Assembly: GCA_965214705.1 (NCBI GenBank)
Contig: CBDCCI010000002.1
Location: 1,184,001 to 1,248,000 of the forward strand
Source: Alphaproteobacteria bacterium
Lineage (GTDB): Bacteria > Pseudomonadota > Alphaproteobacteria > UBA828
Length of the DNA: 64,000 nt
Direction: 5' to 3'
Each line of letters opens with the position of its first letter. Position 1 is the stretch's first letter. Position numbers and translations under genes: made by a program. Below are positions 52,257 to 55,890 of this stretch, one piece after another. The notes beneath the pieces were generated by a model. That model had not been told where the DNA came from. It did not search any database and worked only from the letters and a program-made list of their open reading frames with translations.

Positions 52257-52286
52257 TTGACGTATCTCAATTGAGATGCATATTGT
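52257..52286 (+). promoter_or_regulatory. Toxin-antitoxin promoter with palindromic operator
   Basis: TTGACG (-35, 52257) and TATTGT (-10, 52281) bracket the perfect palindrome ATCTCAATTGAGAT (52264-52277). Confidence 0.75.
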
Positions 52287-52308
52287 TGGTAACGACGTAG
52301 GATGTCCC

Positions 52309-52608
52309 ATGCCAGCTCAGACTTCGATGCTCCATGTCCGTGTGGACGATCAGCTCAAGGCGAAAGCGGCCGACACGCTGGCCGGCGTTGGCCTGACACT
52401 CTCCGATGCCGTGCGCATCCTGTTGACCCGTGTTGCTGCGGAGGGCGGTTTGCCGGTGGGCCTGACCGCCGATCCTGAAGCCTATGATGCGTGGTTCCGC
52501 GCCAAGGTACGGGAAGCCCTGGACGATCCGCGTCCCGCGGTTCCGCATGAACAAGTTATGACCGGCACGCAGGCGCTCATTGACGGGAAGCGCCGTGCGC
52601 GAACTTGA
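52309..52608 (+). CDS. RelB/DinJ family antitoxin
   Basis: RVD..LK..A...L...GLTLSDAVRILL...A.EG.LP, YDAWFRAKV..AL.D.RP..PHE.V. Confidence 0.9.
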   Translation: MPAQTSMLHVRVDDQLKAKAADTLAGVGLTLSDAVRILLTRVAAEGGLPVGLTADPEAYDAWFRAKVREALDDPRPAVPHEQVMTGTQALIDGKRRART

Positions 52609-52876
52609 ATGGAAGGCGATGGCGGTCGCCGATCTGATGGCGATCGTTGACTACATCTCGGACGATAATCCAGACGCTGCTCAGGCCTTGAAGGAAGACA
52701 TCGAGGCCAAGACATCCCGCTTGCGGGAGAACCCACGGCTCTACAGGACCGGTCGCGTGGCGGGCACTCGCGAGATGGTTGTGCGCTCGAACTACCTCGT
52801 GGTCTATGCGGAGGACGCCCACACTGTCACGATCCTCCGCGTACTGCACGCAGCCCAACAATGGCCTCAGGCATGA
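52595..52876 (+). CDS. RelE/ParE family toxin
   Basis: LEW...A..DL..I.DYI..DNP.AA, GRVAGTRE.V, Y.VVY, ILRVLH..QQWP; overlaps the antitoxin stop. Confidence 0.9.
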   Translation: MRELEWKAMAVADLMAIVDYISDDNPDAAQALKEDIEAKTSRLRENPRLYRTGRVAGTREMVVRSNYLVVYAEDAHTVTILRVLHAAQQWPQA

Positions 52877-52979: not shown

Positions 52980-54218
52980 TCACATCGTCCTCGTTGCCGG
53001 GGGTGCCCCCTCCCATTCCCCGCCATAGGTACGTTCGATGTGGGATCGGGTGGGACGCAGGCCGCTGGTGCTGGCGATGACCGCCTCGCGGCGGGCACGG
53101 GCGTCGAGGTCTTCCGGCGGTGACGCGTCGCGCCGGATGCGGGGCGTCGCCGCGCCCGGAAAGTTCCAAGCGGTGAGCCAGCGGGCGATGGACCCGTTCA
53201 ACGCGTCGTCGAGCAGGCGGCAGTCGGCGGCGACGGTCTCGTCGCGCACGTCGCGCTGCACTTCGGCGGTGCCGCGCCAGGGCCCCATGTCGGTGGTGGC
53301 GGACTGTCCCAGGATCGTGGTCGCGATGGCACGGTCGAGGTAGGCGACGAAGGCCTGGAAATCGCCGCCGGCACGACGCGCGCTCTCGACGATCTCGATC
53401 TCCTGGCCCTCGGGCAGGATGACGCCGAGGCTGGTGGCGAAGGATTGGACCAAGTCCAGGAGGTCGGCCTTTTGCTCGGCGCTCGCGTTCCTCGGATAGG
53501 TGCCCTTGACGCCGGGCGCGCCGAACTTTTCGAGCGCGACGGACCAGAACTTGAGCCCGTGGCGCTTGAGCCAGACCGGCCAGAAGCACCAGCGCGCGAG
53601 GCCCGGCCCGTGGGGCAGGTCGCCGTGCTCGCCGGGGCGGCGCAGGATCGCGAATTTTGCGTCCGGCAGCGGCTCGCCCAGCGGATGCGCGTCGGTGCGG
53701 AGCAAAGGCGCGCCCTCCGCCGACCAGCGGAAGCGGTCGGGCGCGCGCACCATGAGGTGGTCGAGCACCACCCGATCGCCAGCGCGGGCCCAGAGCGCCT
53801 CGGCGATGGCGTAGCCGTACCAGACCCCGTGCAGGAGCTGGCGGCTGACGGCATCGAAGCCGACGCCTTCGAGCTGACGGGCGAGGTCGTCGGTCGCGGC
53901 GCGATCGTTTGGCCCGTCGCCGCCGGGCTCGACCGTCCAGGGCCGCGCGATGGCGGCATCGAGGCGCTGGTCGAGAGCCGCCTGGCAGCGCTCGTCCCGC
54001 AGGATGTCGCGATAGATGCGGAGCGCATGCCCCTCGTCGCGGTAGCGCTCGGCGTAGCGCGAGGGCTGACGCGGGTTGAGCGGCAACTCACCGATATAGG
54101 GCTGGAGGCGGCCGGCGATGCTGGCGGCGGCGACCTCGCCGTAGGGTGGCCCCGCCGGCACGCTGGCGCGGGAGGGAGGGAGAAGCCGGCGGAGCCGGGC
54201 CGCGAGGGCCGCCGCCAT
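52980..54218 (-). CDS. Mu-like portal protein (gp29 / DUF935 family)
   Basis: Y.D.L.D......L.QR, L.G..YGY...E..W, P.G.GL....FWP...K.....FW...LEKFG.P, G..LPEG.EIE, ILGQ..TT, AEVQ..VR, L...NFP. Confidence 0.85.
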   Translation of the reverse strand: MAAALAARLRRLLPPSRASVPAGPPYGEVAAASIAGRLQPYIGELPLNPRQPSRYAERYRDEGHALRIYRDILRDERCQAALDQRLDAAIARPWTVEPGGDGPNDRAATDDLARQLEGVGFDAVSRQLLHGVWYGYAIAEALWARAGDRVVLDHLMVRAPDRFRWSAEGAPLLRTDAHPLGEPLPDAKFAILRRPGEHGDLPHGPGLARWCFWPVWLKRHGLKFWSVALEKFGAPGVKGTYPRNASAEQKADLLDLVQSFATSLGVILPEGQEIEIVESARRAGGDFQAFVAYLDRAIATTILGQSATTDMGPWRGTAEVQRDVRDETVAADCRLLDDALNGSIARWLTAWNFPGAATPRIRRDASPPEDLDARARREAVIASTSGLRPTRSHIERTYGGEWEGAPPATRTM

Positions 54219-54268
54219 CAGACGAGGCTCCGGTTGGCTGGGAGAGACGCGGAGGATTGGGCGTTCGT

Positions 54269-54325
54269 CATGCCCCGATCATTGCGACCTCGGCGCACCC
54301 TGTGCACCGCACCATGGTGCGGGGC
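54269..54325 (-). promoter_or_regulatory. Putative activator-dependent leaderless promoter upstream of the portal gene
   Basis: Minus strand: GCCCCGCACCATGGTGCG..N..AATGAT-cggggc-ATG. Same layout and 57-nt length as 55731..55787. Confidence 0.6.
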
Positions 54326-54356
54326 CTCTTCGCGCGCCTCGGTCGCCTTCCGCCGA

Positions 54357-55733
54357 TCAGTAGAACCCCGCAAGCGAAGCAGCGCGCGGGCCGGCGCTGG
54401 CGCCTCCGGCGGACGCACTGCCGTCGCGGGCGGCGGTGCAGGCCAGGGCCAGCGCCCAGAATCGGTCGGCGTGGCCGTCGGTGCCCGAGCGTTCGGCAAG
54501 CAGCCGCGGCGCCCCGGTCGGCCCGGCCTCGGCGCGGACGGCATGGAGGTCGCGCCTAAGCTCCGCGTCGGGCGGGATGCGGAGGCGGCGATCCTCTACC
54601 GCCTCGCGCAGCGCCGTTGCCACATCGAGCCTGCGCGGACCGGACATCAGCACGCCCTCGACCACGGTCCGGCCCAGGTCTTCCTGCAGCTGCTCCACCA
54701 CGGCCTCGCCCATGCCGGTCTGGTCCACGGCGATGCGCACCGGCCGATAGCGCGCCGCAAGGTCGCCCACGATCGCCCGCTGCTGGCTGAAGGGGATGCC
54801 CTGGCGGACCGCCAGCTCGCGCAGCCAGAGCACGTCGCCCACCTGCTCGAGCACCGCTGCGACCCAGAGGTCACGCCGCCTCGCCACGTCCACGCCGACG
54901 GTGGCGGCTCCGCCGGCGAAGGCGGCGGGGTCGCCTGCGGTAGGGTCTTCGCAGGCGCGGATCGCCTCCCACGCGAGCCAGGCCCCGCCACCGGCGGCGG
55001 GGATGCAGTCGAGTTCTTCGCCCGAATGGCTGCCGTATTCGGCCCTGAGCGCGCCCTCCCATTCGGCCTCGGCGGCGGCCGACCAGGGGCGGCCCTGCCC
55101 CTCGACGATACGGCGAAAGAGACCCTGCGCCAGCGCCTCCTTGAGCGTGGTGCGGTGCAGCGAGCCCGGCCGCGCGCCCTCGTCGATCTCGCGGCAGAGC
55201 GTCGCGAAGGGGTTGGCCTCGCCGTTGTGGGTGCTGATGACGTGCGCCCGCCCACCCCAGACGCGGAAGGCGAGCGCCGCCTTCAGCACCTCACCGAGGT
55301 CGTCGACGAAGGCCGCCTCGTCGACGATGGCAAGATCGCCGGGCCGGCCCTTGGAGCGGAAGGCGCGCGGCGCCGAGGTCATGGCGAGGATTTCGTGGCC
55401 TGAGCCGAAGGCGATGCGGAAGGCCCGCACGGCACGCCCATCCTCGACCATCAAGGTCTCGCCGAGCGCGCCGGCCTTGTTCTGCAACCTCTCTGCCCAG
55501 CCGGCGCAGTCCTCGATGAAGCCCCGGGTCATCTCCAGGTTGTAAGCCTGGTAATAGACGTTGCCGCCCCCTTTCGAGCCCGCGTGTATTACCGCGTCGT
55601 AGGCCTCGGCCCAGGAGATGCCGATGCGTCGCGCCTTTTCGATCACCTTGAAACCTGCAGGGTCCGACACCCAGCGGGCCTGATAGGGGAGGAGGGAGAG
55701 GTGGAGCGATTCACCAGAAGCAGGGCCAACCAT
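54357..55733 (-). CDS. Mu-like terminase large subunit (gp28-like)
   Basis: LLPYQ..W, EKARRIGISW (Walker A variant), IVDEAAF (Walker B), ISTHNG..N.F; nuclease domain GVDVARRRDL, DQTGMG, GHAD.FWALALA. Confidence 0.9.
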   Translation of the reverse strand: MVGPASGESLHLSLLPYQARWVSDPAGFKVIEKARRIGISWAEAYDAVIHAGSKGGGNVYYQAYNLEMTRGFIEDCAGWAERLQNKAGALGETLMVEDGRAVRAFRIAFGSGHEILAMTSAPRAFRSKGRPGDLAIVDEAAFVDDLGEVLKAALAFRVWGGRAHVISTHNGEANPFATLCREIDEGARPGSLHRTTLKEALAQGLFRRIVEGQGRPWSAAAEAEWEGALRAEYGSHSGEELDCIPAAGGGAWLAWEAIRACEDPTAGDPAAFAGGAATVGVDVARRRDLWVAAVLEQVGDVLWLRELAVRQGIPFSQQRAIVGDLAARYRPVRIAVDQTGMGEAVVEQLQEDLGRTVVEGVLMSGPRRLDVATALREAVEDRRLRIPPDAELRRDLHAVRAEAGPTGAPRLLAERSGTDGHADRFWALALACTAARDGSASAGGASAGPRAASLAGFY

Positions 55734-55787
55734 GCCCGTACCATGACGGCACCCGGCGCCAACGGCCATCGCACCAAGGTGCGGGGC
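55731..55787 (-). promoter_or_regulatory. Putative activator-dependent leaderless promoter upstream of the terminase gene
   Basis: Minus strand: GCCCCGCACCTTGGTGCG..N..CATGGT-acgggc-ATG. 17/18 identity with the portal-upstream motif at identical distance from the ATG. Confidence 0.6.
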
Positions 55788-55890
55788 GCGCGATCGGGCG
55801 CGAGCTCCATCGCGCTGACTATGCGTTGAACGCAGCGCCGCTCCTATGGGACGATGGCAGCAACCACCAACGAATACCGGGAGATGACCG

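Follow-up and report, generated by a model that had tools for sequence, protein, structure and literature searches.

A split, vertically inherited Mu-derived phage gene set behind a repeated promoter-like module in an uncultured Rhodospirillales genus: a candidate gene transfer agent-like system

Two neighbouring genes in a 64,000-nucleotide stretch (the window) of an uncultured alphaproteobacterial genome (G000) encode a Mu-type large terminase (terL) and a Mu-type portal, and they raise the question of whether such a pair, set among host genes with each member behind a copy of the same upstream segment, is the residue of a decaying prophage or one part of a gene set that its host lineage maintains. 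The sequence-only reading that drew attention to the locus had argued for a dispersed, host-maintained regulon over random decay, and three tests (occurrence in relatives, selection and a genome-wide motif scan) largely support this, random decay being unlikely. The explanation favoured here, with moderate confidence, is a Mu-derived system resembling a gene transfer agent (GTA), that is, a domesticated, split and vertically inherited phage gene set, for which a GTA-like role is the candidate function. The genome comprises 7.92 Mb in three contigs (67% G+C, 8.7% estimated contamination) and was compared with 20 others of the same genus of uncultured Rhodospirillales (Alphaproteobacteria), all metagenome bins, and with 20 genomes of other genera, in which the portal or the terminase served as query; the host organisms are apparently uncultured Rhodospirillales for which such bins are the only record.

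The terminase, the portal and their upstream module

Both open reading frames (ORFs) are intact (Table 1), in keeping with what had been read from the sequence, and each is the sole match in G000 to its family (Portal_Mu and Terminase_6C, respectively). The portal spans the full PF06074 domain (profile positions 2-335 of 336), and its residues 68-370 align with residues 63-370 of the 526-residue solved chain 8rka_A; a second solved chain, 9khx_X, has 512 residues. No stop codon interrupts any of 16 portal sequences. Comparison of the terminase with solved structures gave no sequence match; the stretches that we take to be its Walker A, Walker B and coupling motifs and its three nuclease motifs, with the nuclease aspartates, are invariant or conservatively changed in all 12 orthologs. 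The terminase most likely starts at Met13 of the frame as listed, because in the relative G004 a TGA lies upstream of that codon and the alignment of most relatives begins only at residues 14-26 (in four relatives it begins at residues 1-3). The claim that the ATG behind each module opens the gene thus probably stands for the terminase and fails for the portal, where this ATG opens a 17-codon upstream ORF (uORF), with GGAG 9 nt ahead of the portal ATG. A uORF of 14-20 codons ending in TGATG precedes the portal in 10 of the 11 genomes examined; in the remaining one, G002, this ATG and the portal share a reading frame.

The segments upstream of the two genes share one layout and one spacing, GCCCCGCACC[A/T]TGGTGCG followed by 24 nt, AATGAT or CATGGT, 6 nt and ATG, and the 20-mer CCCCGCACCWTGGTGCGRTG, with up to two mismatches allowed, occurs at two places in the window against 0.01 expected (100 shuffles), which upholds the earlier notice of a shared segment. 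A profile built from seven genome copies (cut-off E<=0.01) scores these two at E 1e-13 (portal) and 1e-10 (terminase); they are the only copies in the window, of which positions 1-45000 were checked for phage genes by this module scan only. Across G000 the profile finds 47 copies, with the consensus of a near-palindromic 14-16-mer, GTGCAC, 18 nt, CAnGAT, 6 nt and ATG. The -10-like hexamer has A at position 2 in 41 of these and T at position 6 in 40, and the ATG keeps its fixed distance in 38, is one base off in six and is missing in three. The perfect palindrome CGCACC-NN-GGTGCG, through which the segment had originally been described, is present in both window copies and has 11 exact sites in the genome; as a general description it does not hold, the left half of the dyad being CGGACC in most copies. 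From five exact sites outside the window, which lie near ordinary metabolic genes, it had seemed that the palindrome was unrelated to virion genes, a view overturned by the profile scan: the module heads the terminase, the portal, an operon running from protease and scaffold through capsid to tail genes, an operon that begins with a DUF5675 gene and most of nine genes for Mu gp27-type small terminases. It was the sequence-only reading that had proposed such a scan. Its ATG is the in-frame start of the terminase, DUF5675 and gp27 genes. Upstream of the portal the module is found in 10 relatives, including G003 and G002, in which the portal stands alone; upstream of the terminase it is found in G004, G013, G017 and G018 and, in altered form, in G014.

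With the hexamer placed at -12 to -7, the centre of the dyad falls at -43.5 and the conserved ATG begins at +1. In phage Mu, as described in PMC4390567, Mor binds a pair of inverted 5-bp repeats that lie in a 16-bp element centred at -43.5 of the promoter Pm, and C, according to PMC2582627, binds a 16-bp imperfect dyad likewise centred at -43.5, the Mu late promoters having -10 hexamers and lacking -35 hexamers. The geometry of the module fits that of a Mor/C-dependent promoter, provided that CAnGAT is the -10 element. On this proviso the two have in common a dyad of 14-16 bp at the same position and the lack of a -35 consensus, and a Mor-family gene is present in G000. They differ in that the dyad sequence is unrelated, the -10 element is weak (only A(-11) and T(-7) are conserved) and the predicted start is the A of the ATG, which would make the transcripts leaderless; they also differ in number, with 47 copies in this genome against five promoters in Mu, Pm and four late promoters (as given in PMC4390567 and PMC2582627). 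Two other views of the module were dropped. It is not supported as an RNA motif or riboswitch, there being no Rfam match at E<=1 in five loci and a loop of only 2-4 nt in any palindrome hairpin, and a 15-codon ORF from an ATG in the palindrome centre, seen by eye in three or four copies, was set aside because conservation is at the DNA level with fixed promoter-like spacing.

Table 1. Coordinates of the features in the window (plain numbers) and elsewhere in G000 (C3)
Feature	Position	Strand	Evidence or content
Mu-type portal, 412 aa	52980..54218	-	Pfam Portal_Mu E 7.4e-88; PHROG phrog_113 E 1.3e-81
17-codon upstream ORF	54218..54271	-	starts at module ATG; TGA overlaps portal ATG (TGATG)
Portal module	54266..54333 (C3:1,238,333)	-	dyad 54308-54321, GTGCAC, -10-like AATGAT 54278-54283, ATG 54269-54271
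Large terminase (terL) as listed, 470 aa	54357..55769	-	Terminase_6C nuclease domain E 4.6e-20; PHROG phrog_2 E 3.8e-28
terL read from module ATG (Met13), 458 aa	54357..55733	-	open frame with GC3 0.87
Terminase module	55728..55795 (C3:1,239,795)	-	dyad 55770-55783 with TT centre, -10-like CATGGT 55740-55745, ATG 55731-55733
Head-tail operon, co-directional	C3:2,819,260 (module at top) down to ~2,804,349		1.58 Mb from the window genes
Regulatory and probable lysis locus	C3:2,896,419-2,901,045		S24 repressor, Gam, Mor-type activator, DUF5675 gene, phrog_6637 gene
DUF5675 gene then phrog_6637 gene	C3:2,896,419-2,897,545		module-headed (module at C3:2,897,545)
RelB/PaaA2-type antitoxin and ParE toxin, between pyc and portal	52276..52876	+	Pfam; genomic context, outside the phage set

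Other parts of the set and their arrangement

Phage-derived capsid, portal, terminase and tail genes are all resident in the host chromosome of G000. The capsid (phrog_1005, with a weak Phage_cap_E match) was found through the promoter module, which overturned a reading of "no capsid" drawn from family searches of this genome, PF10124 (Mu gpT), PF05065 (HK97 capsid) and PF04233 (Mu F) having given no match. The operon to which it belongs begins with a head maturation protease, a scaffold or cement protein, the major head protein and a Mu G-type (Phage_tail_S) protein, continues with a tail terminator, a major tail protein, a chaperone, a 269-aa tape measure and further virion proteins, and closes with a DUF1833 minor tail protein, a 1225-aa J-type central fibre and a collar fibre. 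In each of the three genomes looked at, the tape measure is a short protein (269, 285 and 256 aa), and a uORF of 28-46 codons overlaps the protease start in all four of the genomes that keep this operon.

A second locus on the same contig combines regulatory and probable lysis genes. Diverging from a repressor with a Peptidase_S24 domain are a small PHROG-family gene, Gam (PF07352), one more ORF and an activator gene of the Mor family (PF08765, scored at 28 bits where the cut-off is 24.9), a kind of gene that the sequence-only reading had proposed to look for. Mor is followed by a ferritin/Dps-like gene that may belong to the host. A lysis role would fit the DUF5675 gene, a DUF5675 protein being grouped structurally with C82 peptidases among the candidate lysins of a 2026 preprint. 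In G000 Mor and the terminase are 1.66 Mb apart, a separation regarded as a later rearrangement because the Mor locus lies 3-20 kb from the terminase in relatives. A stretch adjoining the Mor locus (C3:2,901,782-2,913,849) has a lower G+C content (56-64%), several IS-type transposases and a tyrosine-integrase-like gene, and may mark the breakpoint of this rearrangement.

The set carries markers of Mu-like ancestry (PF11985, phrog_2 with Terminase_6C, PF06074, PF07352 and PF08765). The nearest Mu-like siphophage seen is a prophage at G002:C1:~189-213 kb, which has Gam, Mor, DUF5675, gp27, large terminase, Mu portal, protease, scaffold and capsid in common with it, at identities of 51% for Mor, 64-75% for the DUF5675 operon, 69-70% for terminase and portal and 78-79% for the capsid. 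Unlike the dispersed set, this prophage also carries MuA (rve and Mu-transpos_C), a MuB-like AAA protein, MuF and a full-length portal of ~500 aa, and neither it nor the true Mu-like prophage of G012 has a copy of the module. Searched by tblastn with queries from the G002 prophage, G000 gave only 26%-identical integrase-core matches for MuA and none for MuB, MuF or the small terminase; the absence of MuA rests on tblastn, a Pfam DDE_2 search being uninformative (no match in any control genome). With its pieces up to 1.66 Mb apart on one contig and no MuA or MuB homologue by tblastn, the gene set is not packageable as a unit, and a contiguous transposing Mu-like phage is excluded.

The small terminase is the most widely scattered part. 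Nine solitary Mu gp27 genes (PF11985, phrog_426) are dispersed in G000 with ordinary host genes on their flanks; six share 77-92% identity among themselves and 29-41% with the three other gp27 genes included in the comparison. Copy number is 1-15 per genome, and PF11985 had no match in any of 14 control genomes. About 30 module copies are followed instead by low-GC3 non-coding sequence that opens like the start of a gp27 gene, and many of these short elements end in a phased array of 10-nt ATCCCGN repeats, as gp27 genes also do on their 3' side. The genome has 19 arrays of this kind; 15 of them follow a module of the same strand at a distance of 130-753 nt, and the control search with the pattern reversed gave none. 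The short elements look like internally deleted copies of a unit made up of promoter, gp27 gene and array. One of them is present in G000, G017, G014, G013 and G004 and absent (gap of 0-69 nt) in G008, G011, G015 and G016, and a 720-nt gp27 unit of G017 is absent at the matching site of G000; in these two comparisons of a filled with an empty site, exact element boundaries and target-site duplications could not be made out, the intergenic DNA on either side having diverged too far. The flanks of gp27 genes have recombined between G000 and G017, a near relative, in that the two flanks of single G017 copies stand apart in G000 (C2:151899-152927 / C3:635063-635905 for one, C1:2965060-2966397 / C1:3164097-3165279 for another), which suggests that the repeated gp27 and module units serve as chromosome breakpoints.

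Short elements of a second subtype, also headed by the module, end in a different repeat in place of the ATCCCGN array (for example C1:986403(-), C3:1029667(+), C1:520251(+), C1:1162323(-) and C3:2851339(-) in G000); their translation, '...HLGPLWAGVGRN...', points to tandem TTGGGCC-like units. A short module element of G000 also lies between genes for a 2-hydroxyacid dehydrogenase and an acyl-CoA dehydrogenase. At the same site G005 (C4:~1231876-1232667) has a 790-nt insert, by eye an AbrB/MazE-like and PIN-like pair, and G012 keeps only the 3' repeat part, so the intergenic site seems to be an insertion hotspot.

Inheritance, selection and erosion in the genus

Full-length orthologs of the portal and the major head protein are each found in 15 of the 20 genus genomes (84-95% and 88-99% identity, respectively), and those of terminase and Mor in 13 each (78-97% and 78-100%), and none was found in the 20 genomes of other genera searched with portal or terminase. 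That the pair would be kept in close relatives had been foreseen, and in seven of 10 loci examined the order metE-like gene, terminase, portal and pyruvate carboxylase gene (pyc) is retained. Three genus genomes, G011, G015 and G016, each rated 100% complete, have no orthologs, no 15-mer core of the module and no PF11985 gene; in the other 18 genus genomes the module core and PF11985 occur together, the reversed-pattern control being zero everywhere. At the single locus used for comparison it is also these three that diverge most (80-83% identity).

Estimates of dN/dS (Nei-Gojobori) lie below 1 throughout: 0.09-0.23 for the portal and 0.17-0.32 for the terminase, and so not near 1, as would have been expected had the pair been left to drift; 0.05-0.26 for Mor, 0.14-0.31 for the repressor, 0.19-0.46 for Gam and 0.24-0.48 for DUF5675; and, within the head-tail operon, 0.14-0.17 for the scaffold, 0.15-0.16 for the tail terminator, 0.18-0.20 for the capsid, 0.25-0.27 for the major tail protein and 0.32-0.41 for the protease. 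The host genes metE-like, hydB and pyc gave 0.03-0.07, 0.06-0.14 and 0.12-0.16, respectively. Pairs involving the terminase of G004 and pyc in three genomes were left out, a stop codon falling in the non-coding stretch ahead of the true start. Over 28 pairs, the dS of the portal correlates with that of the metE-like gene beside it (r 0.76; means of 0.31 and 0.29, respectively), in keeping with vertical inheritance as part of the chromosome. Orthologs in 13-15 of 20 genomes, syntenic flanks and dN/dS of 0.09-0.58 together speak for vertical inheritance under purifying selection across the genus.

The set has been cut differently in different lineages, each piece keeping its promoter. The portal alone stands beside an OsmC-like gene and other host genes in G003, G018 and G002, on another contig than the terminase in G003 and G002 and 80 kb from it in G018. 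Between capsid and terminase the distance is 108 kb in G017, 1.2 Mb in G013 and 1.67 Mb in G004, and the two are on different contigs in G005, G008 and G009. The head-tail operon directly follows the repressor region in G003 and G002; in the clade of G000 it is 0.1-1.7 Mb off or on another contig. In three of the syntenic relatives an extra segment of 1.7-1.9 kb separates terminase and portal (L019:6200-8010 in G004, L024:6160-8010 in G013 and L020:6080-8010 in G005); it holds one frame of 456-470 residues, rich in acidic residues and ending '...ENFDIE.LDETDF.FY..P'.

Several observations weigh against domestication. Five of the 18 genus genomes in which the module and gp27 genes occur have lost an essential part or keep it only in broken form: the terminase is split by a 5.2-kb insertion in G008; the portal of G020 is reduced to residues 1-23 and 184-392 and ends in a stop; a deletion in G004 joins the protease to capsid residue 55, the scaffold gene having gone; G018 has no capsid ortholog; and G012 has no terminase or Mor ortholog and only a fragment of the portal. 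What follows some 30 of the 47 module copies is a short non-coding repeat element in place of virion genes, and these two facts, beyond the view of the sequence-only reading, weaken any strong claim of domestication. Divergence is moderate (dS 0.1-0.6), and dN/dS is higher for the tape measure (0.50-0.58) and for gp27 genes (0.30-0.63 for the small-terminase paralogs, 0.30-0.52 for gp27 orthologs). The shared absence in three genomes may reflect a single event and is therefore no independent evidence of functional linkage. Relative to the solved Mu-family portals (512 and 526 aa), the portal is short of ~100 C-terminal residues, a shortfall common to all its orthologs and evident also against the portal of the G002 prophage; no Mu F-type head protein was found in G000 with PF04233 or by tblastn. 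The retention of a phage-type repressor and activator is also compatible with a merely defective prophage. All genomes are metagenome assemblies, that of G000 with the contamination estimate given above.

Two of the eroded loci have further features. The insertion in the G008 terminase (L021:9761-14982) looks transposon-like; among its several long ORFs are two with P-loop motifs. In G018 (L110:724-1695) the head-tail promoter and uORF stand directly before a tail-fibre gene with collagen repeats and a collar domain, the whole region from protease to minor tail protein appearing to have been deleted.

Possible mechanism, alternatives and known systems

The history that would best account for these data begins with an ancient Mu-like siphophage that may have entered the ancestor of most of this Rhodospirillales genus, no longer has a detectable transposase or Mu F-type head protein, and would have been broken into several chromosomal pieces that were passed on vertically under purifying selection. 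The terminase and portal of the window would be the packaging module of this old phage. On a signal that removes the S24 repressor, presumably by self-cleavage in the manner of LexA-type repressors, the early operon would make a Mor-type dimer, the likely ligand of the dyad at -43.5 in promoters that have no -35 element. The predicted first base of the transcript is the A of an ATG whose distance from the dyad centre is fixed at 44 nt, and the resulting leaderless mRNAs would be translated directly for the terminase, the gp27 genes and DUF5675; translation of the portal and the head-tail operon would pass through the short uORF by stop-start coupling. A particle so formed would be unable to carry its own genes, since these lie up to 1.66 Mb apart, and would most likely be GTA-like, with host DNA as its content.

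In Mu, packaging normally proceeds from many integrated copies and takes flanking host DNA along, and a descendant without transposase would for this reason be pre-adapted to move host genes. A bolder version of the proposal, which must be considered improbable, takes the ~47 modules as fixed packaging entry points, some 15 of them with an ATCCCGN array within 0.13-0.75 kb and with nine gp27 paralogs alongside. The chromosome would then imitate a cell full of replicated Mu copies, the Mu-derived GTA filling its heads with host DNA from ~50 activator-switched sites by means of small terminases of differing specificity, and the units themselves would spread and mediate rearrangements.

The strongest competitor of the GTA-like reading, though an unlikely one, is a cryptic and slowly eroding defective prophage without host function, conserved because the species are close or through past or partial selection. 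The part broken or lost in five of 18 carrier genomes, the phage-type repressor and Mor that have been kept, the truncated portal, the missing MuF and a dS of only 0.1-0.6 are all what such a remnant would show. It accounts poorly for dN/dS values well below 1 in all nine phage-derived genes of one comparison set and below 1 in all 12 head-tail genes in every comparison, genomes with the genes unlinked included; nor does it readily explain the uninterrupted frame of every portal sequence among the 16, the terminase motifs kept in 12 of 12 orthologs, the conserved module and uORF coupling, and the retention by each separated piece of its own promoter. A host function of another kind, interference with infecting phages, is a weaker contender still. 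Here the Mor or C protein of an invader would switch on the resident truncated portal, terminase and diversified small terminases, by which the packaging of the invader would be poisoned or misdirected. The C-terminal truncation of the portal, the 1-15 small-terminase paralogs per genome, which evolve faster than the other parts (dN/dS 0.30-0.63), and the true Mu-like prophages that coexist with the set in G002 and G012 are consistent with this; a complete operon from capsid to tail fibre under purifying selection would not be needed for it, however, and the true Mu prophage regions examined have no module, the Mor of the G002 prophage being only 51% identical, so that cross-activation is not evident.

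The repeated units invite a quite different and rather improbable explanation, namely that module-gp27 units and their short derivatives are selfish hitchhikers, each a late promoter with a small terminase and a packaging-type repeat array, that exploit the heads of a resident or helper phage so that they and neighbouring DNA are packaged, with terminase and portal persisting mainly within a parasitic network. Insertion polymorphism of the short element and of the 720-nt gp27 unit between genomes, and the position of 15 of 19 phased arrays behind a same-strand module, at 130-753 nt (none in the control), would follow from it; no transposase, integrase or target-site duplication was found tied to the units, conservation of the structural operon would be left unexplained, and the idea is in any case compatible with the GTA-like reading rather than exclusive of it. 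It is barely credible, finally, that a functional, inducible Mu-like prophage has been split only by assembly errors. All genomes are indeed metagenome assemblies and 8.7% contamination is estimated for G000, but the pieces lie inside long contigs with host flanks that are syntenic across several independent assemblies, one contig carries pieces 1.58 Mb apart, and no homologue of the transposase of the related prophage was found. Relative to a functional Mu phage, the set has no MuA or MuB homologue by tblastn and no contiguous genome, Mu ends having been no part of the search.

Known gene transfer agents are few and derive from a handful of phage lineages, and a literature search, which was not exhaustive, found no description of a domesticated GTA derived from Mu. 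The closest parallel to the proposed system is RcGTA of Rhodobacter capsulatus, whose production genes, as described in PMC7947584, occupy at least five loci and cannot all be held by its particle. Both consist of phage-derived head, tail, portal and terminase genes that are chromosomal, vertically inherited and spread over several loci, and in both the set cannot carry itself; the tape measure here is also short. The differences lie in the Mu-type portal, the gp27/gp28-type terminase subunits and the match of the capsid to a family other than HK97 (phrog_1005), G000 having neither a PF05065 match nor a single head-tail cluster of the RcGTA type. Terminase and portal are here separated from the head-tail operon, and the small terminase is multiplied to 1-15 copies. 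Regulation apparently falls to a retained Mor-type phage activator and S24 repressor, in contrast to the host proteins described for RcGTA in PMC7947584.

Comparison may also be made with phage-inducible chromosomal islands and with lateral transduction. The former encode their own small terminase, and the latter packages chromosomal DNA from fixed points. A small terminase beside a possible packaging site could similarly direct chromosomal packaging here; unlike the islands, the units are only ~0.3-0.9 kb in size and stand at many sites of the genome, and no integrase, replication or excision functions were seen in them. The interest of the GTA-like reading lies in the compactness of the proposed regulon, in which a single Mor-type activator and a single dyad would serve ~47 promoters with predicted leaderless starts, in the unusual multiplication of small terminase genes and, if the system is active, in a route of gene exchange inside uncultured communities.

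Portals related to the one in the window are found in other metagenome bins, often in many copies. In one Rhodobacteraceae bin there are eight loci, all 45% identical to the query; three loci each occur on a Binatia chromosome (58-60%) and in another alphaproteobacterial bin (57%). Multi-copy transposable phages are the probable source of these portals. The immediate surroundings of the window pair are as the sequence-only reading placed them, with the RelB/ParE pair after pyc on one side and a 389-aa ORF with a weak Meth_synt_2 match (E 4.2e-7), the metE-like gene, on the other, beyond which hydantoinase genes follow. The genes for the RelB/PaaA2-type antitoxin and for ParE overlap by 29 nt; both are found in three of seven syntenic relatives (G005, G008 and G014), and relB alone is found in G017.

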